Notes under the pieces: model-generated
The model's database searches: none
Told to the model about the DNA's origin: nothing
The model's input: only the letters and a program-made list of their open reading frames with translations
Position numbers and translations under genes: made by a program
In this document: positions 1 through 30,900 of the stretch, piece by piece
Layout: every line of letters starts with the position of its first letter
How positions within the stretch are numbered: the stretch's first letter is position 1
Assembly: GCA_005239895.1 (NCBI GenBank)
Contig: SBBB01000022.1
Coordinates: 4,098 to 68,097, forward strand
Direction of reading: 5' to 3'
Length of the DNA stretch: 64,000 nucleotides
Origin: a bacterium
GTDB lineage: Bacteria; Patescibacteriota; Patescibacteriia; SBBB01

Positions 1-88
1 GTCTTTAGTATCTAATCTGCCCGGTATCACAATTGCTAGTTTGGATGAATTAGGGTAGCCTTTTTCATATACAGCTATTTCAAAAGTT

Positions 89-976
89 TTAAGTTTTATG
101 ATTGTCATATTTTTGAATTTTAATAAGCGTTGAATTAAATAATAAATTTTTCTCTTTTTTTATTTCATCAATAATCAAACTAACCATTTCTGTGTAGGTA
201 TATTTTGGCAAATCAAGCTCTGTTAGTTCCGATAAATCATCTTTAAAAACTTCAGTTGATTCTTTAGCGTCAGTTGGCATGACCTTAACCCCTAAAGGAG
301 TTAATATATCCTTTGCTGTATCGTATCTCGATTTCATTGCAGAGCATGCAACAACAATGGATTGATTACAAATTTTTCTATTTATACAAACCTGAATTAC
401 ATCGCTTATATGCTTGATGTAAGTCGGTTGAAATAACCATGATGTATCATAAATAGCCAATACGTCTTCATCTAAATTTTTTAACAATCTATTAAAAGGT
501 CTGTCGTTGGTCGTGTTTGGGCTATAACCAAGAATAAGTGATGGACGAATGATAATATATCCATTTTTTACGGTTTTTACAATTTCTTCAGATTGTAGTT
601 TTGTTCTTCCATAAAGATTTTGTGGATTAATTGCAGCCATGCTTGATATATAGATCAGTAGAGCGCCTATTTGATTTGCAACGTCAACAATATATTTAGT
701 TGCAGTTTGATTAAGAAGCATGGCTGCTTCAGGATTAACATCGCACCATTTTGAACTAGCATTATTAGCAACATGAATTATTATTTTGGAACTATAATCA
801 TTAACAACTTTTTTAACATCATCTTCGTTTGTAATATTAAGATGCACTAAATTTTTAGAAAGTTGCTTGTTGCAATAAGTACCAACTACACTAAATTTTG
901 ACTGAAGATCAAAATATATTCTAGCACCTAAGTAACCACTTGCGCCTATGATTAAAATTTTAGTTTTATTTTCCAT
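89..976 (-). CDS. NAD(P)-dependent sugar-nucleotide epimerase/reductase (RmlD-like Rossmann fold)
   Basis: 295 aa ORF; N-terminal GxGxxG-like ILIIGASGYLG Rossmann motif; overall RmlD/epimerase-like. Confidence 0.55.
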   Translation of the reverse strand: MENKTKILIIGASGYLGARIYFDLQSKFSVVGTYCNKQLSKNLVHLNITNEDDVKKVVNDYSSKIIIHVANNASSKWCDVNPEAAMLLNQTATKYIVDVANQIGALLIYISSMAAINPQNLYGRTKLQSEEIVKTVKNGYIIIRPSLILGYSPNTTNDRPFNRLLKNLDEDVLAIYDTSWLFQPTYIKHISDVIQVCINRKICNQSIVVACSAMKSRYDTAKDILTPLGVKVMPTDAKESTEVFKDDLSELTELDLPKYTYTEMVSLIIDEIKKEKNLLFNSTLIKIQKYDNHKT

Positions 977-1067
977 AAACTCAAACTAATGAACTCTTTA
1001 ATTTGATCTTTACCAAACATCATTAATAGCCATGCTGTTTAGCGCTAGCTAAATTAAAATATAAACT

Positions 1068-1664
1068 CTATCTATTTTTATGTGTCCAAATATTTTCCCA
1101 CCACTCAGATACTTTTCCTTCTAAAATTTCTTTACCTAATTTTTTTGCGGACTTGGTCTTAAGATTCATATACTGAATATTTTTTTTGTTCTCGGGGCCC
1201 TTGCCCGCAAGCCAAATTTTAGCCTCAGAATTACCTTGATGGCTATACTCCTTTAATAAAAGAATTTGATCTAAAAGATCCGCGTCTTTAGCAATGACAG
1301 CTTCTCTGCTTTTTCTTACTTCAAACTCTGCGCTTATTTGCAACAAATCTTTAAATGGCAAATCTCCAAGCTGATCATTTAAAATTTCATTTTCAAAAAC
1401 TTTTACATATTTTTTATGCACATAATTATGATCACCACTGCGAATTTCATTGATATCATGCAAAAGCGCCATCATTACAGTTTTATAAGGATCAACCTTT
1501 TCTATTTTGGCTAAAAACCAAGCTATAAGAGCAACTCTATACGAATGAGTTGTGATATTGTCAGATAAATCCTGAGAGAGCAACATTTGTTGATGCATTC
1601 TAGGTATTTTTTTCATGGTACCAAGTTCAAACAAAAAATTTACTATTCTTTGATTGTTATTCAT
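1068..1664 (-). CDS. HD-domain phosphohydrolase (YfbR-like 5'-deoxynucleotidase family)
   Basis: 198 aa; H...HD...D metal-binding pattern (HSYRVA...LLHDINE...GD). Confidence 0.6.
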   Translation of the reverse strand: MNNNQRIVNFLFELGTMKKIPRMHQQMLLSQDLSDNITTHSYRVALIAWFLAKIEKVDPYKTVMMALLHDINEIRSGDHNYVHKKYVKVFENEILNDQLGDLPFKDLLQISAEFEVRKSREAVIAKDADLLDQILLLKEYSHQGNSEAKIWLAGKGPENKKNIQYMNLKTKSAKKLGKEILEGKVSEWWENIWTHKNR

Positions 1665-1762
1665 AAAAAAATATTACACTGCGTGTGACTTATACTAAAT
1701 ATTATAGAAGAGTTGACTTCCTGGGTCAATTTTAATTAGTTAAATCAACTGTATCTACCAAA

Positions 1763-1858
1763 ATAACTAAAAAACACTAAAAAAATACATATTACAAAAG
1801 GCCTTCATTGCTTATGAAAGGCCCAGTCCGTCACTCATCTATATTTACGAATGACGGA
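1763..1858 (-). terminator. Conserved 96-nt 3' element, copy 1 (two tandem hairpins and a U-run on the minus strand), downstream of LuxR gene 1
   Basis: Read on the minus strand: hairpin CCGTCATTC..GAATGACGG, then GGGCCTTTCAT-AAGCA-ATGAAGGCC followed by TTTTGTAATATGTATTTTTTT. Identical to 3713-3809. Confidence 0.6.
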
Positions 1859-1888
1859 CAAAAAAATAAAAACTATTATTACTCGTCG

Positions 1889-2293
1889 TTACTTGAGTAA
1901 CATGGCTAGTACCTCTAACCTAGATGTTGCGTCTGTCTTTCTCCTGATATGACGCATGTGCTCTCTAACGGTTTCGGTTGTCACATTAAGCATCTCGCCA
2001 ATATGCTCATCTTGCAAACCCTTAACAAGATACTTCACTATATCTGCTTCGCGATTAGTAAATACACCCATCTCAGGTTTGATCAAAACCAAATCCCCCA
2101 AAGAGATGTGCAAAGCATCCAGGTATCTTAAAATAATAAGAGCAACTTTGGTTTTTACAGTCTTTGCATCAAACCCTGCACCATCGCTGTTTTTCTTGAC
2201 ACCCATAACATGCTGAGCCAGGTCAAGAAGCTCCATAACATCCGTTGTTAAATCTGAAATTATTAAGTCGGGTTTACTGTTATTTGGTTTCAT
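1889..2293 (-). CDS. LuxR/GerE-family HTH transcriptional regulator (small, C-terminal HTH)
   Basis: 134 aa; C-terminal ...NREADIVKYLVKGLQDEHIGEMLNVTTETVREHMRHIRRKTDATSRLEVLAMLL typical GerE/LuxR HTH. Confidence 0.65.
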   Translation of the reverse strand: MKPNNSKPDLIISDLTTDVMELLDLAQHVMGVKKNSDGAGFDAKTVKTKVALIILRYLDALHISLGDLVLIKPEMGVFTNREADIVKYLVKGLQDEHIGEMLNVTTETVREHMRHIRRKTDATSRLEVLAMLLK

Positions 2294-2400
2294 CTGAACT
2301 GTAACACATTGTATTTACACTCCTTTCTTATCGGCTACGATTGTTATACATTGTATTGCAAGCCTTAATTCTAAGCCCAAAATATAAACTATATCATACA

Positions 2401-2429
2401 AGAGTAGCGTATTAACACTGTTTTGTCAA
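2401..2429 (-). promoter_or_regulatory. Putative sigma70-like promoter of LuxR gene 1 (TTGACA-17-TACTCT on minus strand)
   Basis: Minus-strand TTGACA at 2424-2429 and TACTCT at 2401-2406. The same architecture and flanking motif AGTAGCGTAT..TTTTGTCAA recur upstream of LuxR gene 2. Confidence 0.4.
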
Positions 2430-2496
2430 CAAAACTAATTAATAAAAATTTTTAAAAAGAAAATAAATATATCAATAATTATTTTGAAAAAATACT

Positions 2497-2530
2497 GGCA
2501 CACGCAACTAAACTTTCTTTGCGTGTGCCA
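2497..2530 (-). terminator. GC-rich hairpin GGCACACGC-N15-GCGTGTGCC followed by U-rich tract on minus strand (terminator of ORF 2559-3437)
   Basis: Perfect 9-bp inverted repeat. A paralogous hairpin at 4583-4616 carries the compensatory pair A/T to G/C. Confidence 0.5.
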
Positions 2531-2558
2531 TATCGTTAAAGCATATGAATAATATTTA

Positions 2559-3437
2559 TCACTGCTTGACATGATCTCTTTTTTGCATTTCTGACCATGG
2601 TATTTTTCCTGCATTATTATACTTCTCGCGCATTGACCGCGCATATAAACTAGTTAGCAGGTTATGGACGCGATTACTCCCCTTGCGCCACAGCAAGCTT
2701 AACTTGGTCGCAAGGTTTTGTGTATTGCGAGTGGACTGAATAATATATGGAGACTTATGTGTATTTTTTGGACGAACTGATCCACTGGATATTGATACTA
2801 CTTTTTTAACAGGTTGAGGTGTTACGACTTTAAATCTCTGAACCTCCATAAATGTCAAAACTATTAAACGTGTGCAAAAATTGACATAACCATGCTCCTC
2901 AATGAACCCTAATTTAAACAAAATTGAAAAATGGGAATTAATACTTGAGATTTTATGATCGTCCTTTTCAGATAACCATACCAACATCATAAAAGCATTA
3001 ATATCACTACACTTCAGATCGTCAATTGTTCGCACAGCCTGAATAGTTCTATCCATAACGTCCATCTGAGACTGACTTGTTTGACTTGAAATTTTATAAT
3101 CCTGTTTCTGTGCCTTGATTGGACTATAAAAATCTAATATTATAGCCAAAATAATACGCACGGGAAAATCAACGCGACCACGGTTCTCTTCACTGTTACC
3201 TTGACCTACTCCAGCATCTATTGTGATAAGCCCTAAATCATCTAAAATTAAAAACGCTGAGTGGTCAGACAGAATAAACACATCATTATATGACAGTGTT
3301 TTCAACATCTGAAAAGCCGCAATCATGTTTTGGTCTGTGCTCTTTCTTAGTTTATTGATCGCGTTGAGTTTATCACTAATATAATCCGCTATGCTCTTTG
3401 CACCTTGCTTTTGATCCATGTCTCTCCTTTCAATCAA
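2559..3437 (-). CDS. hypothetical protein (island-specific, higher GC)
   Basis: 292 aa ORF with no recognised motif; codon composition is GC-richer than the core genome. Confidence 0.45.
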   Translation of the reverse strand: MIERRDMDQKQGAKSIADYISDKLNAINKLRKSTDQNMIAAFQMLKTLSYNDVFILSDHSAFLILDDLGLITIDAGVGQGNSEENRGRVDFPVRIILAIILDFYSPIKAQKQDYKISSQTSQSQMDVMDRTIQAVRTIDDLKCSDINAFMMLVWLSEKDDHKISSINSHFSILFKLGFIEEHGYVNFCTRLIVLTFMEVQRFKVVTPQPVKKVVSISSGSVRPKNTHKSPYIIQSTRNTQNLATKLSLLWRKGSNRVHNLLTSLYARSMREKYNNAGKIPWSEMQKRDHVKQ

Positions 3438-3607
3438 AAAGTGTTAGAAAACTAATTGTAAGCGTCGGTGTCGGTAATCACAAAATATCACACAATACAC
3501 AAAAATGTCAATTACCAACACTACCAACGCAAGACTAATTTATATGTAAAATTGCATGAAAACTTAACAAATCTACACATAAATGATATTGATAATGACT
3601 GTGCATA

Positions 3608-3745
3608 ATGGTTTTACACGTAACACGTTTTTACGGTTCATGTACGGATAAACAATTGGTATTGTTTTCTAGAAACTTTATTGGCATTCAGCACTTAGAT
3701 AAACCGCTACAAATAACTAAAAAACACTAAAAAAAATACATATTA
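3608..3745 (+). pseudogene. Truncated paralog of ORF 4771-5196 (39-aa remnant MVLHVTRFYGSCTDKQLVLFSRNFIGIQHLDK...)
   Basis: DNA and peptide homology to the N-terminal region of the 141-aa ORF (FYGSCT..QL..FSR..IGIQH.DK). The reading frame terminates inside the 96-nt repeat element. Confidence 0.4.
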
Positions 3746-3809
3746 CAAAAGGCCTTCATTGCTTATGAAAGGCCCAGTCCGTCACTCATCTATATTTACG
3801 AATGACGGA
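3713..3809 (-). terminator. Conserved 96-nt 3' element, copy 2, downstream of LuxR gene 2
   Basis: Identical to 1763-1858 except for one extra A. Confidence 0.6.
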
Positions 3810-3823
3810 TAAAAATTTATAAT

Positions 3824-4282
3824 TCATAATTTCAACATTCTCGCTATCAGTTGTAACCTTGAGGTTACTCCTGTCTTACCGCGAATATGGCGCATATGAT
3901 CTCTTATGGTTTCAACACTAATCTCCAACGCAGTTCCAATGTTTTTATCCGAGAAACCGTTTAGTAAGTACCACACAACATGTTTCTCGCGAGGAGTAAA
4001 TCGAACATCTTCTAATCTAGCTAAAACTAGATCTCTTAATGAAATGTTGAGTATTTGTATGCACTTTAACAAAGAAACAACCACCTCTTTCTTGTGCTCT
4101 TCGATCTGCTGCTTTAATCTAGGGCTCTGTTGCTGAAGTTTTGCAATCTTTTTTTCAAGCTCAGCAATCTGTTTCTTGACTATTATAATACCTGTAATGC
4201 GTTGCCGACTTCTATGATTTAGTCGACTTCTATGGTTTGCTTTTTTAATCAAGGTTGCTTTTTTAATCAAGGCTAATTTCAT
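3824..4282 (-). CDS. LuxR/GerE-family HTH transcriptional regulator (paralog 2, coiled-coil N-terminus)
   Basis: C-terminal HTH ...PREKHVVWYLLNGFSDKNIGTALEISVETIRDHMRHIRGKTGVTSRLQLIARML. Start chosen at MKLALIKK, which follows GGAGG (ATGAGGAGGAATATCATG). The ORF track extends to 4327. Confidence 0.6.
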   Translation of the reverse strand: MKLALIKKATLIKKANHRSRLNHRSRQRITGIIIVKKQIAELEKKIAKLQQQSPRLKQQIEEHKKEVVVSLLKCIQILNISLRDLVLARLEDVRFTPREKHVVWYLLNGFSDKNIGTALEISVETIRDHMRHIRGKTGVTSRLQLIARMLKL

Positions 4283-4361
4283 GATATTCCTCCTCATTTG
4301 CCATCTTACGGTTGCTGTACCTTGCATTACCTGAATTCTAAAAAATATGAACCTTGCTATA

Positions 4362-4390
4362 AAAGTAGCGTATAAGTCTTATTTTGTCAA
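4362..4390 (-). promoter_or_regulatory. Putative promoter of LuxR gene 2 (TTGACA-17-TACTTT on minus strand)
   Basis: Minus-strand TTGACA at 4385-4390; conserved with the 2401-2429 region. Confidence 0.4.
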
Positions 4391-4426
4391 TAGTGAAAAA
4401 GTTTATAAAGTTAAAATTTTAGATCG

Positions 4427-4466
4427 TGACACCCTATCACGATCGTGACGAAGTGTCACGGCAATA
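4427..4466. promoter_or_regulatory. Nested palindrome CGTGACAC-N-TCACGATCGTGA-N-GTGTCACG (operator-like site)
   Basis: 12-bp perfect palindrome TCACGATCGTGA embedded in an 8-bp inverted repeat. It lies in the divergent region between LuxR gene 2 and the 141-aa ORF. Confidence 0.35.
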
Positions 4467-4582
4467 ATATTTAAATCACATTTACTTAATTAAATTTTTC
4501 AAAAATAAATAAAACGAAGACACTTGGTGCGATCGCATCAAATATCACATAATAATATAAAATAAGACCTAAATAAATACGG

Positions 4583-4616
4583 GCACGCGCTATAAAACTT
4601 TCTTTGCGCGTGCCAT
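4583..4616 (-). terminator. GC-rich hairpin GGCACGCGC-N15-GCGCGTGCC (paralog of 2497-2530)
   Basis: Perfect 9-bp inverted repeat, with a conserved loop (aaactttcttt) and flanks. Confidence 0.45.
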
Positions 4617-4770
4617 CAAATTAGAATGGATAATAAACCTCATTGAAAGAGCAATATTACTACCGAAAAATATAAATTTGACAAATCTGCAGCCAAATGA
4701 TATTTATAATAGCTGTACGCAATGGTTTTATGCGTAACTAATGAAACATCAAACCATATAGGAGGATCAA

Positions 4771-5196
4771 ATGGGACAAACAACCCAAACAAAACTGGTA
4801 ACATATTTTTACGGATCATGCACACTTGAACAATTGGCATCATTTTCTAGAGATGTTATTGGCATTCAGCATTCAGACAAACTGCCAAAAAACAATATAG
4901 TAATGCCGATATCTGTAATGCGCCAAAGATTTCACCGGGTTTATTGCGAGCAGGGCCAAATAATTGAACCGCCCCGTGTAATGGGTTTTCGCAATATATT
5001 GGTTGGAATATACGAACACACAAAAATCTCTAAAGCCAAATGGAAATCAAAAAGAAAAAATATCTTAATAGTACAACGAACTAACGACAACGAATTTATT
5101 CTAAAACTCGAGCAAGTAAATCGTAATAGTAATTACCATTACATACTTACCAAGCTTGACATCAAGCTCACACACCTCGAGCTAGACCATAAATAG
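4771..5196 (+). CDS. hypothetical protein (141 aa), full-length member of the family truncated at 3608-3745
   Basis: Strong SD AGGAGG 5 nt upstream of the ATG. A paralogous fragment with mostly synonymous differences supports it being a real coding gene. Confidence 0.5.
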   Translation: MGQTTQTKLVTYFYGSCTLEQLASFSRDVIGIQHSDKLPKNNIVMPISVMRQRFHRVYCEQGQIIEPPRVMGFRNILVGIYEHTKISKAKWKSKRKNILIVQRTNDNEFILKLEQVNRNSNYHYILTKLDIKLTHLELDHK

Positions 5197-5323
5197 TTAA
5201 ACTGCTACACAAAAAACACGCAAGGAGGGAATGTCCGATTACGTTCCCTTCTTGCACAAACAAATATTTAAATAAGCTATAAAAATTTTAAATATTCGTA
5301 CTTTAATTTTTTAAAAAAACAAG

Positions 5324-5354
5324 GTTCGCTATCCCATCTTACGACAGCGAACCT
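5324..5354 (-). terminator. Rho-independent terminator of the PurM-like gene (GGTTCGCT-N15-AGCGAACC plus TTGTTTTTTT on minus)
   Basis: 8-bp perfect stem followed by a U-run on the minus strand. Confidence 0.6.
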
Positions 5355-5396
5355 AAAATTAAAATTTTAAATTTGATAATTGCCTAACACCAAGCA

Positions 5397-6578
5397 TCAT
5401 CTAACTCTAAGTGTGGAGCCTAAATACTCTAAACCTTTCGGTTTAATGATAACTGATTTGCTATTACTCTGTTCAATATGTCCAGCGCGAAACGCTACGA
5501 GCTTATTTGTAGTAGCGATTCTGATAACATGATCTACATCAGCTTCCGAAACATAGAGCGCAAAACCAGCGCCCATATTCCAGTTACCGTACGCCTCCCT
5601 ATCATCCACTGGACCATACCTCTGCATAACATCAAATATCAATTGTTGTTTTGGTAAACGATCGATAATGTAGGCAAATGGTTGTGTTGCTCGCATAAGC
5701 TTGCGCCATCCATGACCCGTAATATTTACCGCGTAATGAATGTCCACTCCGCTACTAATACAGTCTTCAACCAGCCCAACATAAATATGAGTTGGATCAA
5801 GCAATGTTTCTCCGTACGTTCGCCCGTCATCGAGTTTGGTCAAATAACCATCAGATAAAACACGAGGCGGAAACCAATTAGGTATTAAAAAGAAATTTAC
5901 CACTGCTTTCCAGAACCTGTGCTTTCTTTCACCAATCTCTCGCGCCATTGTGAGTCCATTAGCATGAATACCCGAACTCTCAATCATAACAATCGCATCA
6001 CCATGTTTAATGTTTGCTGGATTGATAACATTCTTCTTGGATTTAACTCTACCTACAGCAGCGCCGGCAAGTATAACTGTTTTTGGCATCACCATATCTT
6101 TCACTGTTTGAGTTTCGCCACAACCCCATGTGCAACGCGCTAAATTACAAGCGTTTTTAGTACCTCGACTGAAGTCTCTATAACGCTTCTCATCTGTAAA
6201 CCAACTTGATTTACCTGCTGCGACAAATATCATAAATACATGCGGAAATACGCCAGACGCAACCAGGTCATTTACAACCATAGCCACATTACACTGCGCG
6301 ATATGGTCGTAATAAGACTTGCCAGTGAGACGATACATAGCATCGGCTACTAGATTCTTTGTGCCCAATCCTTCTATAGTACCTCCCCAATAACAATCAT
6401 CCACTTCCATAAGATAAGCGCTCTCACCGCGACTCCACCTGGCTTCTTTAAAATCTCCATTACTGAAGTGATAGATGTTGTTTGAGGTGTCACAACCATC
6501 TATTTGCGATATTCTCTTGGTTAGATCCATCGCATCATAATTTACTCCAACTCCATCATAAGTCATTTTGCCTGCCAT
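5397..6578 (-). CDS. AIR synthase (PurM)-family protein
   Basis: PurM-like motifs GLGTKNLVA, VAMVVNDLVASG, GETLLDPTHIYV, NITGHG, WNMGAGFALYV; carries an N-terminal extension. Confidence 0.65.
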   Translation of the reverse strand: MAGKMTYDGVGVNYDAMDLTKRISQIDGCDTSNNIYHFSNGDFKEARWSRGESAYLMEVDDCYWGGTIEGLGTKNLVADAMYRLTGKSYYDHIAQCNVAMVVNDLVASGVFPHVFMIFVAAGKSSWFTDEKRYRDFSRGTKNACNLARCTWGCGETQTVKDMVMPKTVILAGAAVGRVKSKKNVINPANIKHGDAIVMIESSGIHANGLTMAREIGERKHRFWKAVVNFFLIPNWFPPRVLSDGYLTKLDDGRTYGETLLDPTHIYVGLVEDCISSGVDIHYAVNITGHGWRKLMRATQPFAYIIDRLPKQQLIFDVMQRYGPVDDREAYGNWNMGAGFALYVSEADVDHVIRIATTNKLVAFRAGHIEQSNSKSVIIKPKGLEYLGSTLRVR

Positions 6579-6702
6579 TGATTTTCCTCCTTTGATCTAA
6601 ATTTAAAACACTATCATCCGCGCCAACAAGTATTCTTAATTAAGGAATAGCATATTACAGATCTATGTCAACGATGAGAATAATATACAAACAACTACAT
6701 AA

Positions 6703-7158
6703 TTATTCTATTATATCTGCTATAATTCCATCCCACACTTTTTCTAATTCTTTAGATTTAATTTCAATACCGATTTCTGCTTTTCCGCTTCCAATATTTA
6801 CCACTTCAGTTTTAAAAATACTTTTATCAATAATTTTCTTTATATTTTTTTCAATACCAAAAGGCGTAACTCCGCCAATTGTATAACCAGTTATTTCTTC
6901 AACTTCATTTGGTTTTGCCATTCGTAATTCTTTTTGATTTACAATCTCTTTCAATTTATTTATATTAACCCGTTTGTCTCCTGGTAAAACAATGATAACT
7001 GGTTCAGTTTCACCTATAAAAACAAGTGTTTTTAAAACTTGCTTAAGTTCACACCCATAAATCCTTTCTACGTCTTGAGCTGTTTTTGGAACTTCGTCTA
7101 GTTCTATTATTTTAAATTCTATATTTTTACTTTTAAGATAATCTGTGCTTTTATTCAT
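6703..7158 (-). CDS. YbaK/ProX-type aminoacyl-tRNA deacylase domain protein
   Basis: 151 aa; overall similarity to YbaK/ProX editing domains (..ITGYTIGGVTPFG..). Confidence 0.6.
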   Translation of the reverse strand: MNKSTDYLKSKNIEFKIIELDEVPKTAQDVERIYGCELKQVLKTLVFIGETEPVIIVLPGDKRVNINKLKEIVNQKELRMAKPNEVEEITGYTIGGVTPFGIEKNIKKIIDKSIFKTEVVNIGSGKAEIGIEIKSKELEKVWDGIIADIIE

Positions 7159-7260
7159 AAAATGATTTTAATTAAATCTTAATAATTATTAACTTAGGTG
7201 CCTTGCTCCTAAGTTGTTGCTACGTAAATGTGCTTGCACTACGAAGCCTTGGCGAAGTAG

Positions 7261-7331
7261 TGGACCTGAGGGGAATCGGACCCCTGCCATCCGGATGCAA
7301 ACCGGATACACTACCACTATGCTACAGGCCC
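7261..7331 (-). tRNA. tRNA-Ala (anticodon UGC)
   Basis: Minus-strand cloverleaf: acceptor GGGCCTG/CAGGTCC with a G3:U70 pair, anticodon arm TCCGG-TTTGCAT-CCGGA, discriminator A. The T-loop is atypical (TCCGATT). Confidence 0.55.
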
Positions 7332-7479
7332 TAAATATAAAATTAAAAATTCTAAAACCTAAAATCTAAACAAAGCAAAAACTCAAATGTTTCAAACTAA
7401 AATAGTTTAAAGTTTTGTATTTTAAATATTTAAGTTTGTTTGGGATTTAGGATTTATCTATAATTTTTAATTCTAATCT

Positions 7480-7734
7480 TTATAAAATGCCACCAAATAA
7501 GGGTTTAATTATAGACAATACAATTTCACCCAAAAAACCAGTGAGATATAAAAAGGCTATAACCATTATTAATATACCCAAAAGTTTATAAAATAATCTA
7601 GTGCCACCTTGTAATCCTAGATACTTTTCAGCAAAATCTACGCGACCAAAATTTTCTAATAGCCACTCTGATTTTGATACTATTAAAAAACCTAAAACAA
7701 TCCCCAAGGGACCAAAAATCAAACGTAATATCAT
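7480..7734 (-). CDS. small membrane protein (84 aa)
   Basis: Two to three hydrophobic helices; no other evidence. Confidence 0.35.
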   Translation of the reverse strand: MILRLIFGPLGIVLGFLIVSKSEWLLENFGRVDFAEKYLGLQGGTRLFYKLLGILIMVIAFLYLTGFLGEIVLSIIKPLFGGIL

Positions 7735-7821
7735 ATAATTAATAAATTATTTTAAACTAATTGATAATTTAATAATTTTATTATATCTATTAGTTCTAAA
7801 GAACACAATACTTTTTTTAAG

Positions 7822-8640
7822 CTACCATGCTTCCAGCAATTTAGATTGCCAAATATATATCACTTTACCTAAACCAAATAAATTATAATTTAAAACCGTG
7901 GAACTGCCATAAACTATATAAACTCCACCCAAAAAAATTAAAATTAATCCTGAAAATAATCTTATATTTTTGAAAACGCGAATATTATAATTCGGAAAAA
8001 AGAAAAGCAGTATTAAAAATGGAGTGAATACTCCCAAAACATATAATAGAATCAAAAGCGCTGAATAAATATAATTATCAGAATTAGAAGCCATAAATAA
8101 AATACTAAACAAAACCGGCCCCACGCAAGGATTAAAACCTGCCGCAAAAAATAACCCAAACCATACATTCAGGGTTGGATGATTTTTTAAAAAATTAGAC
8201 CAAGTAACCGGCAATTTAAATCGATCTAATAATAAAATAATTCCCAGCAACAATATCGCGACCCCCGAAAACAATACAATGTAGCTTTTATTAATAATTA
8301 GTAATTGACCAAAAAAAGTAACACTAAAACCTAGTAGTAAAAAAATTATAAAAAATCCTCCAGCGAAAAATAATATATTTTTTAAACGTTCCTTTTTGCT
8401 TTGGGTTTTTAAAGATATTCCTGTCACTGCCAAACCAATGGGAAGCATGCAAGGACTAAAAAACGACAACAAACCGCCCAAAAATGCCACCAACAAAGAA
8501 ATATTGCGTATATTGGCAACACTGTTCTTTACAGCTGAATCTAAAAGCTCTTCACTTACAGGCGGTACAAAATAATAAACACCTATAAATAGTATTACAA
8601 CTAACAAAAAACTTATAATGTTAATAACTCTGGTCAACAT
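7822..8640 (-). CDS. ccdA: CcdA/DsbD-family thiol-disulfide transmembrane electron transporter
   Basis: Polytopic protein; conserved cysteines in TM helices (FSPCMLP, FNPCVGP). Confidence 0.65.
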   Translation of the reverse strand: MLTRVINIISFLLVVILFIGVYYFVPPVSEELLDSAVKNSVANIRNISLLVAFLGGLLSFFSPCMLPIGLAVTGISLKTQSKKERLKNILFFAGGFFIIFLLLGFSVTFFGQLLIINKSYIVLFSGVAILLLGIILLLDRFKLPVTWSNFLKNHPTLNVWFGLFFAAGFNPCVGPVLFSILFMASNSDNYIYSALLILLYVLGVFTPFLILLFFFPNYNIRVFKNIRLFSGLILIFLGGVYIVYGSSTVLNYNLFGLGKVIYIWQSKLLEAW

Positions 8641-8713
8641 AGAAATCTAAAAACAAATATAGTATACTTTGATTATATTAAAAACAATTTAAAATACCAA
8701 ATTATAAATATTA

Positions 8714-9511
8714 ATGAATTCACTTATGCATCTACTAATGAATCGTGTTATTTTAACTGGTTTATTATTATTAAACATATTATTAGTTTTCTTCTCTCCG
8801 CAGGCGGGATTAGAAACCTTATATCAATTTATAATCGTATTGGGAGCAATTTTAATTTGTGAAACTACAATTCATTTTTTAAAAGGCTATCATTTAATAT
8901 TATATAGTAGTAGTAATGGATTTATTTCAGCTATGATAATCAGCTTACTATTGCCACCACGCCAAGTACCTGTACTAGCCTTGATATTAATTGGAGTAAT
9001 CACAAGTTTATCATCCGAATTTATACGTCATCAAAACCGACCGATTTTTAATCCTACAGCCTTGGCTTTAATTATAACTTCTTTTATATATTCATCTTTA
9101 GCCTATATTTGGTCCCCTAACGCTTTTCTTGCCCCAACTGTTTTATTATCTATAATTGTAATCACACTTAGTAATAGGTGGCATTTAGTCGCTGGATTCT
9201 GCGCGCCTCTACTTATTGCAGGACTAGTAAATATATTTCAATCTAATAATTATAGTACTTTTAATTTGTTAGTTGGGGCTATATTTTTTATGGGCATTAT
9301 GTTAATTGAACCTAGGTCATCACCCTTAAATACGCACGGACAAGTTTTTTTTGGTATTATAATCGGACTATCCTATTTATTTTTAAATTCCGAACAATTA
9401 AAAAATCCACTACTACTAGCTTTATTAATAGGTAATATTGCTGTTCCCCTTCTTAATAACCTATTTATTCAACATAATCATCAAAATCCAGTCCCCGACT
9501 TAGTAAAATAA
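8714..9511 (+). CDS. polytopic membrane protein (265 aa), function unknown
   Basis: Hydrophobic throughout. Confidence 0.45.
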   Translation: MNSLMHLLMNRVILTGLLLLNILLVFFSPQAGLETLYQFIIVLGAILICETTIHFLKGYHLILYSSSNGFISAMIISLLLPPRQVPVLALILIGVITSLSSEFIRHQNRPIFNPTALALIITSFIYSSLAYIWSPNAFLAPTVLLSIIVITLSNRWHLVAGFCAPLLIAGLVNIFQSNNYSTFNLLVGAIFFMGIMLIEPRSSPLNTHGQVFFGIIIGLSYLFLNSEQLKNPLLLALLIGNIAVPLLNNLFIQHNHQNPVPDLVK

Positions 9512-9516
9512 ATAAA

Positions 9517-9552
9517 TGTAAGAAACTGGCGCGATCGCGATGGTTTCTTACA
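9517..9552 (+). terminator. Hairpin TGTAAGAAAC-N16-GTTTCTTACA immediately after the stop of 8714-9511
   Basis: 10-bp perfect stem; the loop contains CGCGATCGCG; followed by TTTG. Confidence 0.4.
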
Positions 9553-9579
9553 TTTGTACTATACAATACAGCAATAATT

Positions 9580-9617
9580 AATGTTTAGGAGTTGAACTCC
9601 TAAACATTGGTTTTTTA
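9580..9617 (+). terminator. Rho-independent terminator AATGTTTAGGAGTT-GAACTCCTAAACATT plus GGTTTTTT (member of a palindrome family)
   Basis: 14-bp perfect stem plus a T-run. A near-identical hairpin lies at 51464-51491. Confidence 0.65.
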
Positions 9618-9841: not shown

Positions 9842-9956
9842 ACATGATGTTAATTTAACATTTTAATCAACAATTTAGGCCATTCTGGATTGCAAATTTT
9901 AGACAAAATCTAGGATTTATAATCTACAATGTTTCACTAATCTAATTATACACATT

Positions 9957-10625
9957 ATGCATATAACCTGGTTTGGACAAGCGTGTTTTAAAATTCAAAC
10001 CACTATTAAAGACCAAGAAGTAACTATAATTACAGACCCCTACTCTAAAGAGCTGGGTTTAAAATTGCCCAGAATCTTATCAGCCGATATTGTAACTGTC
10101 AGTCACCAGCATTATGATCACAATAATGTAGATTTAATAGGAAAAAGTAAACAAGAACCGTTTATTATAAATCATGTCGGAGAATATGAAGTAAAATCTG
10201 TTTATATACAAGGTATATCTACTTATCATGATAAATCTAAAGGAGCAGAAAGAGGAATGAATACAGTTTATAAAATGTATTTGGAGCATAATATAGTACT
10301 AGCGCATTTGGGTGATATTGGTCATGTATTAACGACCGAACAATTAGACGAACTGAATGGTGTTCATATTCTCTTAATACCCGTGGGTGGAGTATATACT
10401 ATAGATAGCGCTGATGCTCAAAAAATAATTTCTGAAATTGAACCTAAAATAGTTATACCCATGCACTACGATCTACCCGGCTTAAAAGTTGACTTGGATC
10501 CCGTAGAAAAATTTTTACACGCCCTAGGAATTAAAGAGCACGAACCCCAAACTAAACTAAAGATTAGTAAGAAAGATTTAGAGAAAGAAGGAACCCAGAC
10601 GATAGTTCTAACCCCGAGTTCTTAA
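9957..10625 (+). CDS. MBL-fold metal-dependent hydrolase (UPF0173 family)
   Basis: HQHYDH metal-binding motif and an MBL-fold pattern. Confidence 0.65.
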   Translation: MHITWFGQACFKIQTTIKDQEVTIITDPYSKELGLKLPRILSADIVTVSHQHYDHNNVDLIGKSKQEPFIINHVGEYEVKSVYIQGISTYHDKSKGAERGMNTVYKMYLEHNIVLAHLGDIGHVLTTEQLDELNGVHILLIPVGGVYTIDSADAQKIISEIEPKIVIPMHYDLPGLKVDLDPVEKFLHALGIKEHEPQTKLKISKKDLEKEGTQTIVLTPSS

Positions 10626-10630
10626 AATTT

Positions 10631-11014
10631 ATGTCCGGTTTTTCAAAAATATTTCGACGCGAAATAGGAAATCTAAAATGGGACTTAAAACGCCTAAGAA
10701 AATATCCTGAAAAAACCAAACGTAAAATAGTAGCTTACGGAGTTGGAATAATTAGTTTACTGTTATTAACAATCTTGATGACCTTATCTAAATATGCAAT
10801 AACCACCACAACACCAGATAAAAACACGAATCCGAGCCCTGAAATGGAGAATCTTCAAACCAAGTTGTTGGACTTACAACAAACCATAGAAAAACATTTT
10901 GACAGTTTAAAAGAAGTCCGAAATCGTTACAAAACTTTAACGCCTGAACAAATAAAAATTATTGAGTCTAAGCTTAAATCAACAACAACTATTGAATATG
11001 ACCGAACAAAATAA
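10631..11014 (+). CDS. hypothetical membrane-anchored coiled-coil protein (127 aa)
   Basis: One TM helix followed by a coiled-coil-like C-terminus. Confidence 0.35.
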
Positions 11015-13466
11015 AAATATATTTGATATAGGAAAAGTAGAAAATAAAAATATCGTTACGGAAATGCAGGAATCCTACTTAGATTACGCCATGTCAGTTA
11101 TCGTTGCCAGGGCTTTACCTGACGTACGCGATGGACTAAAACCCGTTCATCGACGCATACTCTACGCTATGTGGCAATTAGGTTTAAAATCCAATAGCAA
11201 ATATCGCAAATCAGCCATGGTGGTTGGTGAAGTTTTAGGTAAATATCATCCCCATGGAGATGTCGCAGTCTACGATTCCATGGTGCGTATGGCTCAAGAT
11301 TTTTCACTGCGCTACACTTTAATTAATGGACAAGGCAACTTTGGTTCGGTGGATGGAGATAATGCAGCTGCTATGCGTTACACGGAAAGCAAACTGCAAG
11401 CTTTAGCCGAAGAGTTATTATTTGATTTAGATAAAGAAACCGTACGTTTTGTAGATAACTACGACTCCAGCACCACGGAACCATCCGTATTACCAGCTAA
11501 AATACCCAATCTTTTAATAAATGGCGGCATGGGAATCGCGGTTGGTATGGCAACCAATATTCCCCCTCATAATTTAGGAGAAACCATTGATGCAACTCTA
11601 TGCTTAATTGATAATCCGGAAGCAACCATCGAAGATCTAATGTGTTTTATTAAAGGTCCTGATTTACCAACGGGTGGTATTATTTTTGATAAAGCTGAAA
11701 TTCAAAACACTTATACTACGGGACATGGAAGTATTATCACGCGCGGTGTGGCGGAAATCGTGGAAGAAAAAAATGGTCATCAAATAATTATTTCCGAGTT
11801 TCCTTATCAAGTAAATAAATCTGAAGTTATTATAAATATAGCCAACTTGGTTAGAGATAAACAAATTGAGGGTATCAAGGATATCCGAGACGAATCCAAC
11901 AAAGACGGAATACGAGTAGTCATAGAACTCAAAAGAGATTCTTTTCCCAATAAAATTTTAAATCAATTATACAAATTCACAGCTCTTCAAAACACTATTC
12001 ATGTAAACTTACTGGCCCTAGTAGATGGCATCCAGCCTAAAGTTTTAAGCTTAAAAAGTATTCTGGAAGAATATATTAAACACCGCCAAACAGTTGTGAG
12101 AGCTAGAACGCAATTTGAGTTAAAAGAAGCTCAAGCCAGGGTGCATATTTTACTAGGTCTTAAAATCGCTCTGGATAATATAGATGCAATTATTAAACTC
12201 ATTAAATCTTCCGCGGATCGCAATGACGCTCGTGAAAATTTAATGAAAAAGTACAAACTAAGTGAAATTCAATCCAATGCGATTTTAGACATGCGTTTTG
12301 GACAATTAGCCAAACTACAAAGATTTGAAATTGAAAATGAACTAAAAGAAAAACAATTGTTAATCAAGCATCTACAAGAAATACTATCTTCCCCTAAAAA
12401 ATTAATGGGAATTATTAAAGCCGAACTAAATCATATTAAAGAAAAGTACGCAGATGAGCGTCGCACTAAAATTGTGCCCACTAAACTTACAGATTTTAAT
12501 CAAGAAGATATTATCCCTGATGAACCCACGGTAGTTGTCATCACTAAAGATGGTTATATAAAGCGACTATCACCAGACATATTCAAGGCGCAAACTAGGG
12601 GTGGCAAAGGTGTTATTGGCATAGAAACTAAGGCTGAAGATGTGGTGGATCAATTCTTGTCAGCCACTACTCATAATGACTTACTCTGTTTCACAACCCG
12701 CGGACGGGTGTTTAAAATTAAAGTTTACGAAGTATCCCTAACCTCACGCACAGCCAAGGGTCAAGCCTTGGTGAACTTCTTAAACTTACAAGAAAATGAA
12801 AAGGTTAGCGTAACTTTACCCTTAACCAAAACTCATAAGAGTGATGCTCAATATTTAGTCATGATCACCAAACGAGGTGTGATTAAAAAAGTAGCTATTA
12901 AATTTTTTGAAAATGTTCGCAAGTCTGGACTAACAGCTATAAAATTAAAACCTGATGATTGTTTAGAGTGGGTTAAACCATCTAGCGGCAAAGACCAAAT
13001 TATGCTCGTTACTACTTTAGGTAAAAGTATAAGATTTAAAGAAAGCAATGTGCGTGAAATGGGACGTGTAGCTGGTGGTGTGCGCGGCATTAGATTAGCT
13101 CCTAAAGATGAAATTGTAAGCATGGATATTGTGAGTGATGCCGTAAAACAAAAAAAGGAACTGCTAGTAATTACAACCCTGGGTTTTGGAAAAAGAACGG
13201 ATCTAAATCAATATCGCATTCAAGCCCGGGGTGGCTCAGGTATAAAAACCGCAAAAATTACACCGAAAATAGGTAAAATCATAAAAGCTTTTGTGGTTGA
13301 CTCGGAATTAAGTGAGTCTTTGGATTTAATTATTATTTCTCAAAATGGACAGGTTATTCGCTTACACTACAAAGAAGTAAATAAATTAGGACGAACCACC
13401 CAGGGAGTCAGAGTAATGAGATTCAAACAAAATGATGATTTAGTTGCTTCTATAGCGCTAGTTTAG
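10998..13466 (+). CDS. gyrA: DNA gyrase subunit A
   Basis: [29 protein letters not shown] and the rest of the GyrA N-terminal domain, plus a beta-pinwheel C-terminal domain. Start taken at MTEQNK; the ORF track begins at 10962. Confidence 0.85.
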
Positions 13467-14307: not shown

Positions 14308-14778
14308 ATGCCTGTTCCTAAAAAAATATTAACCTTCTTAGACAAAAATCTAGTTAAATATACTATTTTAGATCATAAACTAGTATATACAGCTTTTGAT
14401 TTATCACAAACTTTAAAAGTTTCACCCCAACAAATCTCTAAAACTATTGTTATAAAAACTGATAAAGAATATATTTTAGCTGTTTTATCAGCCGCGCATT
14501 ATATAAACCTAGCCAAACTTACAAAAATACTAAAAATTAAACGGCTAGCGATTGTAAATGAAAAAACAGTAAGTAAAATCTTTAAAATTAAACCCGGAAC
14601 TATAACACCCTTTGGGAAACTATACAAAATCAAAGTATATTTAGACAAAACCCTATTAAAATCAAAAAATATAATTACTCAATCCGGAAGCCTAAAAAAT
14701 TCTATAAATTTTAAACCAAAAGACTTTCTAAAAATAACCAATGGAGAAATGTGCGATTTTTCATCCAAAAAACGCTAG
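14308..14778 (+). CDS. YbaK/ProX-like deacylase domain protein (second paralog)
   Basis: 156 aa; similarity to YbaK-type editing domains (..PGTITPFG..). Confidence 0.5.
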   Translation: MPVPKKILTFLDKNLVKYTILDHKLVYTAFDLSQTLKVSPQQISKTIVIKTDKEYILAVLSAAHYINLAKLTKILKIKRLAIVNEKTVSKIFKIKPGTITPFGKLYKIKVYLDKTLLKSKNIITQSGSLKNSINFKPKDFLKITNGEMCDFSSKKR

Positions 14779-27204: not shown

Positions 27205-27741
27205 TTAATTACGCGACTTTACTGGTTTGTCATTCAAGGCCACTATGTGTATAGCCTTGGGCACCTTACCTACATACCCAGAGCGATACTGGATAAGCAT
27301 CAGACCAGACGAAATATGCATATAGCTGAGTATGCCTGATGGTTGTGACAATCCCACAAGCTTACCACTAAAATTCACAATAAAAAAATCCGCAGGCATA
27401 AAATCTCTAAATAGACCAATACCTGCTTGTGGTTTCAATAAACCCTGAAGATATTTTTTATTGTCTACTCTATCGTCATAGAGCAACACACTTCCGCCGC
27501 TCATTCTTGTCAACTCGGCCTTATGGGGCAACCAGTTTTGTACTGATATTCCAAGCACCTTGTCGGCCTGTAAAAATAAATCCTTACTACTCAAGGCATC
27601 ATCAACAAACCGCGAACAATGCCCAGGTAAAAACTTATCAGACCCCAGATACCCTGTAATAATATTCGGTGCCAATGCCAATACTGTTGTCATTTTTGTA
27701 CCTCCTTTGTTAAGTGCTAGAACCGGAATCACCATGATCAT
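27205..27741 (-). CDS. hypothetical protein (178 aa) in a higher-GC patch
   Basis: ORF with atypical (GC-richer) composition; no recognised motif. Confidence 0.4.
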   Translation of the reverse strand: MIMVIPVLALNKGGTKMTTVLALAPNIITGYLGSDKFLPGHCSRFVDDALSSKDLFLQADKVLGISVQNWLPHKAELTRMSGGSVLLYDDRVDNKKYLQGLLKPQAGIGLFRDFMPADFFIVNFSGKLVGLSQPSGILSYMHISSGLMLIQYRSGYVGKVPKAIHIVALNDKPVKSRN

Positions 27742-27926: not shown

Positions 27927-30900
27927 TTAAGAACGTTTAATTAATTTAATTTTTAAAACCGCATTGTTTACTAAGATTTCATCACCGAAATCCATTTCTT
28001 TACACGGCATTATTTTACTACAAAGAGTAGCATCTTTCAATTGTTTTGTATAGTCATTAATTACTTTTAACAAATCTTCGTCTTCCGTAAAAAAACTCAT
28101 AACAACTTTATCGTTTATAGTAAGAGATTTATTTTTGCGATAACTATTGATTTGACGAATTAATTCACGCAACAAACCCTCTTGTTTTAATTCAGGTGTT
28201 AAAGTTAAATCTATGGCCACAGTAAGTTTTTTATATTTTTTTGAAATCCAATTGCGTTGTGTCTTAGATTTATCAGCTCCCAGCAACGCAGTTTTGATAT
28301 TCAACTCGTCTTGAATTAACCCTAATAGTTCTTTGTTTAAACTGGATGATAATTTCAGCCCTTGAATTTTTAAACATGACAACGGCTGTCTGATTTTAAT
28401 TCCTGACTCTGAACGCAAGCTGTGCGCTATTTCTACAACTTCTAAAACACTATCCATATTACGATGCAAAGTATTATTAATAAACTTTGCATTATAAACT
28501 GGCCAATTTTCTAAATGCACAGATTCCAGAGTTGGATTTAAAGATTGATACAAAACCTCGGCTTTAAAAGGCATAAATGGAGCAATAACAACTGCTACTT
28601 GCGATAATATAAAGCCTAAAAATTCTGGATTTTGCTTAATTCTATCACGACTCCTTCTTAAATACCATGTAGATAATGAATTAATAAAATCGCCAATTAA
28701 ACGAGTCGCACCAACAATGTCGTGCTTATTTAAAGAGAGTGTCATTTGTTTAATGAGAGCATGCAATTTGCTTAAAATCCATTTATCTAAAATATGTTTT
28801 GGTTTTATAATCTTAACTTTTTTAGATTTAGCTGATTTTTTTACATTATACATTTCATAAAAACTATACACATTCTGCAAGGTAATTAAAATATTTCTTT
28901 GGCTATCAGATATATTTTTCTCGCTTAAATTAAAATCTTCACCAAATTGCACTGCCGTAAGTAAAAAGTAGCGCAAACTATCAACACCGTATTTCTGAAA
29001 CAAAACATCAATATCCGTATAATTTTTTAATTTTTTACTTAATTTTTTACCATCCTCAGCCAAAATCAAACCTGTAACCGATACGTTTTTATAAGCGGGT
29101 TTAAGTTTCCCAAGTTTAGCTCCGTGGGATAGTTTAACTTTAGGAATAGTTAAAGCTGAGGCTAAAACATGTAAAGTATAAAACCAGCCTCGGGTTTGAT
29201 CCAGGGCCTCAACAATAAAATCCGCTGGGAAAATTTTTTCAACCTTTTCTTTATTTTCAAAAGGATAATGCCAAGAAGCATAAGGCATAGAACCAGATTC
29301 AAACCAACAATCCAAAACATCCTCAACTCTACGCATCTCTCCGCCGCAAGAACACTTTAAAACTATATTGTCTATATAGGGCCTATGAAGATCGCGAATA
29401 TTATTATGAAATATATGCTTAGATCCCCAGGGTACTTTTAAACTTACGGCTTGATGTTCGGATTTCATATTAAAATATTTATAAATAGTGCGTATAACCG
29501 CGCCATGAGTCACGATTACAATAGTTTTGTTTTTATAATCCTGATTTAATTTTTCAAATAATTTTGTAACCCTATTTTCAACGTCTTGATAAGATTCGCC
29601 ATTTTCTGGTTTTACTAAATAAGGTTGATCAGAATTATTTCTTAAATCCGTTAACTTGGAATAAAGCTTACCAGTGAAAACCCCGGGATTAATATCGTTC
29701 AAATTAGGATCTATGACTAAAGGAATATTGTGATGGCTATTAATCAGTTTGGCTGTTTCTTGAGTACGTAAAAATTCAGACGCCATTATTAAATCAATGG
29801 TTTGATCTCTTAGTTCCCGGCTAATTTTTTTAGCTTCGGCCACTCCCTTAGCTGTTAAATGAATGGATTTACGAATGTTACAAAAGGTAGGTTCATTTAA
29901 AACCTTATTTACATTATGCTCAGCTTCCGTATGTCTAATAACTATAAATTTATTACCGCTAGGCGTGGCTAAAGCCAGCTCTTCAATACTTCCCATAATT
30001 TTTTTAGTATGACATTTAACGCAAGACCAAGCTGGAATTGGAACTCCCCAAAATCTAGTTCTAGAAATTGCCCAATCCCGAGCTGTATCTAACCATTTGC
30101 CGAACCTTCCATTTTTAATATGTTGAGGACTCCAGTTTATTTTTTTATTATTAGCTAACAGCGCCGCTTTAATTTTTACAACATTCACATACCAAGAGGT
30201 TAAGGGATAATAAATTAAATAATGGTCGCAACGCCAGCAAAATGGATAGGAATGATTAATCACCTCTTCTTTCCATAATAATTTTCTTTGATCTAAATCT
30301 TGAGTAATGGCTATATTAGCGTTTTTAACAAGTTCACCTTCGCCTGGCAAATTTAAACCTTTCATTAATCTACCCGCAGCATCCACAGTTATAAACACTG
30401 GAAGTTTATTTTGTTTGCTCAACGTCATATCATCTTCTCCGAAAGCTGGCGCGATATGCACCACACCCGAACCGTCCGCACTAGACACAAAATCTCCGTG
30501 ATACACTTGATGGATTATATTTTTAAAATTTTTAATGTCTTGGGCTTTAATTAAAGATGAAACATTATAAAAAGCATCATAAGATACACCAATCAATTCA
30601 ACCCCCTTCATTATTTTAATAATCTTATAATCACCTTCGACAAAAACACTCAAACGATCCTTAGTTATAATTAAATATTCGTCTTGTATTTTTATAAGAG
30701 CGTAAAACAAGTTTTTATTAATGGCTAAAGCGACATTACCAGGCAGGGTCCAGGGCGTAGTCGTCCAAACCAAAAAATAACTATTGTTTGGTAAATTATT
30801 ATCTAGTGGTTTTTGAATTTTAAATTTAACATAGATAGATTTGTCATCAACATCGCGATACCCTAAATTTACTTCAAAATTAGATAAACCCGTCTCGCAG

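Follow-up and report, generated by a model that had tools for sequence, protein, structure and literature searches.

The stretch of DNA analysed here (the window) comprises 64,000 nucleotides of a patescibacterial genome (assembly GCA_005239895.1, contig SBBB01000022.1, positions 4,098 to 68,097) and contains, near its left end, an atypical block of ~4.9 kb (~1761-6650) that lies between two compositionally native genes. Two small GerE/LuxR-type regulator genes (LuxR1, 1889-2293, and LuxR2, 3824-4327, both on the minus strand), two orphan genes that we call h292 (2559-3437, minus strand) and h141 (4771-5196, plus strand), and a purM-family gene (5397-6578, minus strand) make up the coding content of the block. 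The left flank is a gene for an HD_3/YfbR-like hydrolase (HD; 1068-1664), the right flank a gene for a YbaK/EbsC-type deacylase (6703-7158, minus strand; tRNA_edit E value of 2e-31), behind which stands a tRNA-Ala gene. The rest of the window holds housekeeping genes, including those for GyrA, ScpA, YebC, RuvC, Mur ligases, an H+-pyrophosphatase, NusA, the isoleucyl-tRNA synthetase IleRS, PNPase, S15, RNase J, the methionyl-tRNA synthetase MetRS, and the ribosome recycling factor RRF, and no paralogs of the block genes were found elsewhere in it.

The whole window has a GC content of 32.7% and its 8- to 64-kb portion one of 32.6%, rather than the ~30% that a first-pass annotation of this DNA had given for the core. 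The GC enrichment which that annotation noticed between 1.7 and 6.6 kb is real: at 36.16%, the interval 1700-6600 ranks second among 591 sliding 4.9-kb windows (mean, 0.3277; standard deviation (SD), 0.0111), about 3 SD high, and no other interval is as far from the whole window in tetranucleotide composition and dinucleotide signature. GC peaks in the purM-like gene (42.6% over 5501-6500; 0.419 for the gene alone). With purM excluded, 1700-5396 has 34.4% GC and is exceeded by 68 of 603 windows; its bulk GC is thus unremarkable, and the signal in that part of the block is one of codon usage.

GC at third codon positions (GC3) runs from 0.345 to 0.407 in the five genes of 1889-6578 (LuxR1, 0.407; h292, 0.345; LuxR2, 0.357; h141, 0.352; purM, 0.348), compared with 0.250 ± 0.047 in the other genes, that is, 2 to 3 SD up. 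When synonymous codons were resampled from background usage on each protein's own amino-acid sequence, all five genes departed from the codon usage of the window (z scores of -5.1 for LuxR1, -5.3 for h292, -3.7 for LuxR2, -5.8 for h141, and -6.1 for purM). As the test holds each amino-acid sequence fixed, the departure is not explained by the composition of the proteins. The flanking genes gave z scores of -1.0 (HD) and +0.7 (YbaK), and no gene in the window has a lower GC3 than YbaK (0.138). Synonymous codons are shifted in the same direction in the four small genes and in purM (r = 0.50; background genes, 0.02 ± 0.22, with a maximum of 0.46). In addition, the coding density of 0.67 in 1665-6702 is the lowest in the window, other 5-kb windows having 0.853 ± 0.072 with a minimum of 0.696.

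These measurements uphold part of the first-pass annotation, which had drawn an accessory island from 1700 to 7331 and counted the HD hydrolase and YbaK among its cargo. Its domain assignments (HD_3, two GerE proteins, the N- and C-terminal AIRS domains, and tRNA_edit/YbaK) hold, and so does an accessory region with foreign-looking composition and low coding density, but the true extent is only ~1761-6650. Because HD and YbaK are native in their codons, they are flanks and not cargo, and the block stops at ~6.65 kb, with a native gene between it and the tRNA-Ala. A second assembly of this sample, made independently by Logan from the same reads (SRR6943130) as the NCBI assembly, also contains both borders. 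One of its contigs (L001) equals window 3780-9609 at 100% and crosses purM, YbaK, the tRNA, and a DsbD-like gene; another (L002) matches window 1-1808 at 100%, passing from HD into the block. As the two contigs cross both borders, a chimeric join at either one is unlikely.

Self-comparison shows that the left part of the block (part A, 1.76-5.26 kb) arose by tandem duplication and that the copies, although diverged, are still colinear; it aligns a first segment, S1 (1740-3713), with a second, S2 (3695-4891). The outermost pair (1740-2109 and 3695-4047, 69% DNA identity) takes in a short module termed R1 and the end of the LuxR genes that encodes the helix-turn-helix (HTH). It is followed by a pair that covers the 5' end of the LuxR genes and adjoining intergenic sequence (2307-2446 and 4280-4409, 64%), by a purely intergenic pair (2436-2467 and 4483-4513, 81%), and by one that contains a hairpin called D4 (2454-2554 and 4540-4635, 68%, the hairpin itself being 84% identical). 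The last two pairs correspond to the h141 promoter region (3560-3624 and 4674-4738, 78%) and to h141 codons ~10 to 40 (3620-3713 and 4798-4891, 79%). The h292 region (2555-3559) has no counterpart in S2.

R1 is a terminator module that follows each LuxR gene on the minus strand: copy 1 (1761-1864) lies 3' of LuxR1, and its outer edge is the left border of the block; copy 2 (3711-3815) lies 3' of LuxR2. The copies are nearly the same, with 98% identity over 105 nucleotides (nt); an indel in one homopolymer and a mismatch where the alignment ends are all that sets them apart. On the minus strand, R1 folds into two adjacent hairpins followed by U-runs (-36.1 kcal/mol; z score of -4.45). The outer edge of copy 1 is ~30 nt from the -35 box of the promoter-like site of HD (TTGACC-17-TATAAT at 1729-1701), and we predict that this copy, as a double terminator, insulates that promoter. 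Since the duplication is otherwise ~30% diverged, an identical run of ~79 nt would not survive in it, and R1 has therefore been homogenised or recombined recently. An integron cassette or attC reading of R1 was rejected, given the two separate terminator hairpins with U-runs and the absence of an integron integrase.

Two further traces of the duplication are decayed. A pseudogene remnant of h141, designated h141' (3560-3713, plus strand), is 78 to 79% identical to 4674-4738 and 4798-4891; it retains the promoter region and approximately codons 10 to 40, has lost 59 nt with the ribosome-binding site and ATG, and is cut by R1 copy 2. Its substitutions number 6, 7, and 7 by codon position, an even spread which indicates that it decays neutrally, as a pseudogene. 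The D4 hairpin (2487-2531, minus strand) is an intrinsic-terminator-like stem-loop with a T-run and an internal palindrome just 3' of h292, while its 84% identical counterpart in S2, D4' (4572-4616, minus strand), is an orphan with no gene upstream. The D4' region (4561-4641) matches sequence just after an h292 homolog in a related genome (67% over 81 nt, E value of 4e-5; the genome is described below). Because D4' lacks an upstream gene and resembles the sequence that follows that homolog, S2 has probably lost an h292 paralog, of which D4' would be the scar.

In its colinear blocks, one truncated neutral copy, and one homogenised short segment, part A resembles a tandem segmental duplication with pseudogenisation and gene conversion. 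It differs from such a duplication in that the LuxR coding parts (39% identical in amino acids) are more diverged than several non-coding parts (76 to 84%), which suggests that selection on the regulators has been relaxed or diversifying, or else that the parts have mosaic origins. A diversity-generating retroelement was considered for the 79% repeat pair and rejected: the mismatches are not adenine specific, and Pfam found no reverse transcriptase among the 50 open reading frames (ORFs) of at least 100 amino acids (aa) in the window.

LuxR1 and LuxR2 share 39% identity (E value of 4e-25), and both carry a C-terminal GerE HTH (PF00196) above the gathering score: LuxR1 (134 aa) at residues 77-131 (E value of 4.7e-11) and LuxR2, behind a coiled-coil-like N terminus, with an E value of 1.5e-11. 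The longest LuxR2 ORF has 167 aa, and the likely start is at 4282 (152 aa, as in the public gene call), with GGAGG in front. Pfam and NCBIfam gave no N-terminal sensor or receiver domain in either protein, all NCBIfam matches being confined to the HTH part and far below their cut-offs; by their domain content both are HTH-only "solo" GerE-type proteins. Like other GerE-like solos, for which the nearest small-protein model is the NCBIfam family LIC13292, they have a ~57-aa C-terminal GerE HTH after a short helical segment; they differ from that family in scoring 34 bits against a cut-off of 200 and in a distinctive recognition helix, ET[IV]R[DE]HMRHIR. The closest relatives found are 213-aa proteins on metagenome contigs with 45 to 46% GC, which are 46 to 56% identical in the HTH part. 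Between LuxR2 and h141, only in S2, lies a nested palindrome, CGTGACAC...TCACGATCGTGA...GTGTCACG (4425-4460), whose 12-mer is unique in the window (0.03 chance matches expected) and which is a candidate operator for LuxR2. Bound to DNA as dimers, LuxR1 and LuxR2 would presumably control their own genes as well as the orphan genes beside them.

The h292 gene encodes 292 aa, or 286 aa from the start at 3419 that the public gene call uses. The protein has an internal two-fold repeat (halves 29% identical, E value of 7e-5) and no match in Pfam, NCBIfam, PHROG, or PDB sequences. Its AlphaFold2 (AF2) model (predicted local distance difference test score (pLDDT) of 61.7) has no Foldseek match at E < 0.1. 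We take the two-fold repeat to be reminiscent of double winged-helix initiator proteins, for which the fold search gave only weak ArsR/MarR-like matches (probability of at most 0.57). An exhaustive HMMER scan of 1.84 billion representative proteins returned a single relative, P0122 (35% identical, E value of 3.5e-17). It is encoded in the only related genome that was found (locus L008; GCA_964395945.1), where an HD ortholog with 87% identity to the window HD lies ~1.3 kb away. After flipping the window, the order of h292 and HD is the same there, with HD inverted and with LuxR, h141, and purM absent. At the same locus, between the h292 homolog and a gene for a Cys-rich 118-aa membrane protein, ~950 nt (L008:7651-8594) have no credible ORF and are full of GC-rich hairpins (38.6% GC, locally to 44%, in a locus of 34% GC), with no Rfam match.

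The h141 gene (141 aa) is preceded by a GGAGG ribosome-binding site and has its own terminator hairpin (5220-5255). No match to the protein was found in Pfam, NCBIfam, PDB, or the phage, plasmid, and viral collections, the large protein databases not having been searched; it is a singleton at 90% identity, and its AF2 model (pLDDT of 41.8) is unusable. In all, 9 of 10 proteins that were looked up were found in the collection, each as a singleton at 90% identity, and the collections contain no close relative; the genes lie on a single NCBI contig (81,187 bp) and also appear in the Logan assembly of SRR6943130.

The right part of the block (part B, 5.3-6.65 kb) is the purM-family gene, a long form of 393 aa; a terminator hairpin follows it at 5323-5353, and 6579-6702 holds a promoter-like region. 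PurM contains both AIRS domains above gathering (N-terminal, PF00586, 37.6 bits; C-terminal, PF02769, 33.8 bits) and scores 166.2 bits on TIGR00878, under the equivalog cut-off of 236.35; it represents a divergent long-form subfamily. Its best matches among solved structures are PurM chains. Known PurM (phosphoribosylformylglycinamidine cyclo-ligase) structures include PDB 1CLI and 3M84 and the long forms 3MDO and 3KIZ; the window protein is ~45 aa longer than Escherichia coli PurM and has the subfamily-specific motif variants EGLGTK and TGHGW. PurM would convert formylglycinamidine ribonucleotide (FGAM) into aminoimidazole ribonucleotide (AIR) in purine synthesis, given the rest of the pathway elsewhere in the genome; no other pur gene occurs among the 50 ORFs scanned in the window. 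Of ~8000 PurM homologs, the best 120 are 58 to 65% identical and come mostly from Parcubacteria-labelled metagenome-assembled genomes (MAGs), with labels on the closest ones such as Nealsonbacteria, Nomurabacteria, Paceibacterota, and Parcubacteria group.

The surroundings of these homologs differ. At one locus (L003), a purM 63% identical to ours is followed by purN and purL; at others it stands with pentose-phosphate genes (L007), against a large serine recombinase that abuts it (L006), or in other surroundings again (L041 and L042). In all six loci, the window and these five, purM is GC-richer than its neighbours, and in the five others its GC3 lies 1.1 to 17 SD above theirs (L003, 0.417 versus 0.359 ± 0.054; L006, 0.607 versus 0.382 ± 0.058; L007, 0.553 versus 0.416 ± 0.063; L041, 0.639 versus 0.450 ± 0.070; L042, 0.645 versus 0.234 ± 0.024). 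The sharpest case is L042, a Nomurabacteria-labelled locus of 33.5% GC in which a sharply bounded block of 54 to 57% GC (~9950-11350) holds only purM, between 87-nt inverted repeats that are 94% complementary; the left repeat begins 58 nt past a tRNA-Gly. Despite the different GC of their loci (42% for L006, 33.5% for L042), L006 and L042 have 85 to 96% DNA identity over purM with ~180 nt upstream and ~70 nt downstream (L006:9823-11340; L042:9690-11329, and likewise L043, L044, and L045). The terminator stem GGTTCGCT/AGCGAACC is common to these two and the window purM, which is the least GC-rich and most diverged copy (67 to 72% DNA identity). By a post hoc count, four of the six loci (the window, L003, L041, and L042) have an Rfam-confirmed tRNA that shares the strand of purM and lies 0.06 to 1.5 kb upstream of it; a tRNA-Tyr that ARAGORN called in L006 was dropped because Rfam did not confirm it. 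With purM exceeding its neighbours in GC at every one of the six loci, a GC anomaly of this gene in a single genome says little about recent transfer; comparison of the loci indicates that the GC peak is typical of the purM family and would point to lateral mobility of the family, not necessarily to a recent event here.

HD loci were found 21 times, with 56 to 77% identity and one at 37%, and had no neighbour in common with the window; none of the 20 besides L008 carries any block gene. The HD hydrolase is unusually conserved, at 87% in L008 and at 56 to 77% in 20 MAGs (loci L008-L029) that have no neighbour in common, and the labels of the MAGs that carry it include Paceibacterota, Magasanikbacteria, Nomurabacteria, "Saccharibacteria", and even "Woesearchaeota" and "Gammaproteobacteria". 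A YbaK scan of representative genomes found nothing; the closest YbaK homologs (six loci, L030-L035) are 74 to 81% identical and stand in unrelated contexts without synteny with the window. Among their MAG labels are Nanoarchaeota, Aenigmarchaeota, and Diapherotrites; genes of archaeal type (GatD, MJ1316) adjoin some of the homologs. Either YbaK has been exchanged between bacteria of the candidate phyla radiation (CPR) and DPANN archaea, or some of these MAGs are mis-binned. A second protein with a YbaK/tRNA_edit domain (156 aa, 14308-14778) is encoded 7 kb from the first.

Our results lead us to propose that the block at ~1761-6650 is a composite accessory patch in a Patescibacteria/Parcubacteria-type chromosome rather than one integrated element, and that it was laterally acquired, reshaped, and fixed; we give this reading a probability of roughly one half. 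Part A would have begun as a cassette that was duplicated in tandem, each copy with a GerE/LuxR regulator, R1, and one or two orphan genes, after which one h141 copy decayed to a fragment, one h292 copy was apparently deleted with its terminator left behind, and the R1 copies recombined recently. Part B would be a purM from a Parcubacteria-wide, GC-rich lineage. Both parts may have come from GC-richer Patescibacteria by general or illegitimate recombination, and both would now be fixed and not self-mobile.

Several observations weigh against this proposal. No donor was identified, and since the best purM match (best 120 of ~8000) is only 65% identical, any transfer is old or its donor unsampled. 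The window purM has neither inverted repeats nor a recombinase beside it. Both Logan contigs stop inside R1, so that the tandem order in part A comes from the NCBI assembly only. The regulatory roles of the LuxR proteins and the operator assignment are themselves inferred. Finally, the L008 locus suggests that h292 has probably been near HD for a long time rather than arriving recently; after so long a stay, however, the GC3 excess ought to have disappeared, and both diverged duplicates still show it.

The last of these points is also the starting point of the main rival, in which the locus is native, vertically inherited, and fast evolving: the LuxR/orphan cassette would have stood beside HD since before the split from the L008 genome, and purM would be an old resident that is GC-rich by family, through constraint or biased conversion. 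The presence of P0122 within 1.3 kb of the HD ortholog, in the same h292-to-HD order after flipping and followed by D4-like sequence, is what vertical descent would leave, and the duplicates, at only 64 to 81% identity, are old. The behaviour of purM is equally compatible with it, as this gene is GC-rich relative to its neighbours in six of six loci and least GC-rich in the window, and its identities are flat at 58 to 65% among the best 120, with no close donor. On the other hand, the five genes depart strongly in codon usage even when conditioned on amino-acid sequence, HD is inverted relative to h292 in L008, where LuxR, h141, and purM are missing, none of the 20 other HD loci has any of these genes, and purM clearly moves laterally elsewhere. 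We regard an entirely vertical history as possible but on balance doubtful.

A further reading concerns purM in particular. The window copy may be an old, partly ameliorated form of a GC-rich single-gene cassette that is mobile among Parcubacteria, with the flank of the tRNA-Ala as an accretion hotspot and the LuxR cassette rearranged through R1. We offer this only tentatively.

The first-pass annotation had instead taken the tRNA-Ala as a classic island insertion site, with an integrase possibly upstream of position 1. In its full form this would be one genomic island, inserted site-specifically at the tRNA-Ala 3' end, reaching to ~1.7 kb, and served by an integrase outside the window. The tRNA-Ala(TGC) gene itself is where it was placed (7260/7261-7331, minus strand; ARAGORN and Rfam, 64.9 bits; no CCA encoded), and it is the only non-coding RNA or riboswitch that Rfam reported in 1.5-7.5 kb, including the region upstream of purM, at E values up to 1. 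With a tRNA 3' end directed at YbaK and the block, atypical composition, and accessory cargo, the locus has the appearance of classical tRNA-integrated or pathogenicity islands, and the upstream, same-strand tRNA in four of six purM loci speaks in the same direction. It differs from those islands in what lies at the junction: the block does not end beside the tRNA, the gene that adjoins the tRNA 3' end is the native YbaK (~0.6 kb of native sequence in between) and not an integrase, and neither an integrase nor an att repeat was found. The tRNA and its 3' flank (7230-7331) do not recur over at least 12 nt, either within the window or in the 667 nt that L002 adds before position 1, so the direct repeat of the tRNA 3' end that had been expected upstream is missing there. 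The best 30-nt ungapped match to the tRNA in 1-7200 is 16/30, which equals shuffled expectation, and the four junction regions have only chance-level A/T-rich 9- to 10-mers in common, with no att-like motif. Integrase, resolvase, recombinase, and transposase domains are absent from all 50 ORFs scanned with Pfam across the window, as the first-pass annotation had noted for integrases. Any integrase upstream of position 1 would be cut off from the block by the native HD and RmlD-like genes and by an alpha/beta-hydrolase gene, the remainder of which fills those 667 nt. Classic integration at the tRNA-Ala 3' end is thus improbable.

An assembly artefact would be another way to arrive at part A. 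A 1.95-kb segment with R1, LuxR1, h292, and h141' could belong to a variant strain or to a distinct and perhaps circular molecule, threaded into the contig in tandem by the assembler via a shared 79- to 105-nt repeat. Both Logan contigs end within R1 (at 1808 and 3780), the R1 copies are essentially identical while everything else has diverged, and the repeat graph permits a path from HD through R1 to LuxR2 plus a 1.95-kb circle. The junction of h141' with R1 is, however, what a real tandem duplication predicts, the R1 copies differ in homopolymer length and have distinct flanks, and the repeat is shorter than typical reads; moreover, the atypical LuxR2, h141, and purM are continuous with native genes on a contig of the independent assembly. 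We consider an artefact of this kind distinctly improbable.

Least probable of all, and very unlikely in our judgement, is a remnant of a Patescibacterium prophage or integrated plasmid, which the low coding density, the decayed genes, the initiator-like two-fold repeat of h292, and weak PHROG matches (HTH and sigma-like for the LuxR proteins, the phage auxiliary purM family phrog_1207 for PurM) might bring to mind but which is contradicted by a block devoid of structural, replication, partition, or recombinase genes, by the lack of any IMG/VR match for h292, h141, LuxR, PurM, or the R1 hairpin and of any INPHARED or PLSDB match to the block as protein or DNA, by a viral fold library without a match, and by PHROGs searches that gave no hallmark, only generic HTH matches and the auxiliary purM family. 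A PADLOC search for defence systems returned only the HTH part of CARF-HTH models (E values of 1e-6 to 2e-3) and, for h292, a marginal hit to HEC-07 over 66 aa (E value of 0.003).

Four other places in the window deserve mention. Between the M23 peptidase and IleRS genes, a lone ORF of 178 aa (27205-27741) without a Pfam match has a GC3 of 0.397 and a codon z score of -5.7, on a par with the block genes, and may be a second, single-gene insertion. In the adjacent IleRS-like protein (27927-31454, 1175 aa), a histidine-phosphatase domain (His_Phos_1, residues 504-673) separates the class I synthetase core from the anticodon-binding domain. An ORF of 124 aa at 35651-36025 (41.9% GC; GC3 of 0.432; no Pfam match) lies between two large genes and may not be a real gene. 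Two adjacent small minus-strand ORFs at 57306-57905 (99 and 91 aa) are a candidate toxin-antitoxin pair of the RelE/ParE and Phd/YefM types.

Patescibacteria have been shown to carry small genomic islands and to exchange genes with one another (PMC12455944). Like the islands described in Patescibacteria MAGs with IslandViewer-type methods, the composite patch is a short atypical stretch in an AT-rich, streamlined CPR genome, it combines regulators, hypothetical proteins, and a metabolic gene, and the exchange behind it appears to run mostly among Patescibacteria (PMC12455944). It differs from those islands in being composite, in having no mobility genes, and in that h292 is also found near the same anchor gene in a related genome.

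Small accessory patches of this kind have already been reported in hundreds in Patescibacteria, and the window itself matters little in that respect. It does illustrate that proximity to a tRNA and a higher GC content are insufficient to call an integrated island, as the neighbour of the tRNA is native here and the searches turned up neither an integrase nor an att repeat. What most merits follow-up is the purM cassette pattern in the related loci. If purM is indeed such a cassette, purine-synthesis capacity in these reduced genomes would be a traded mobile module, and the pattern, seen so far in six loci, may be relevant to the gain and loss of nucleotide biosynthesis in ultra-small symbionts.

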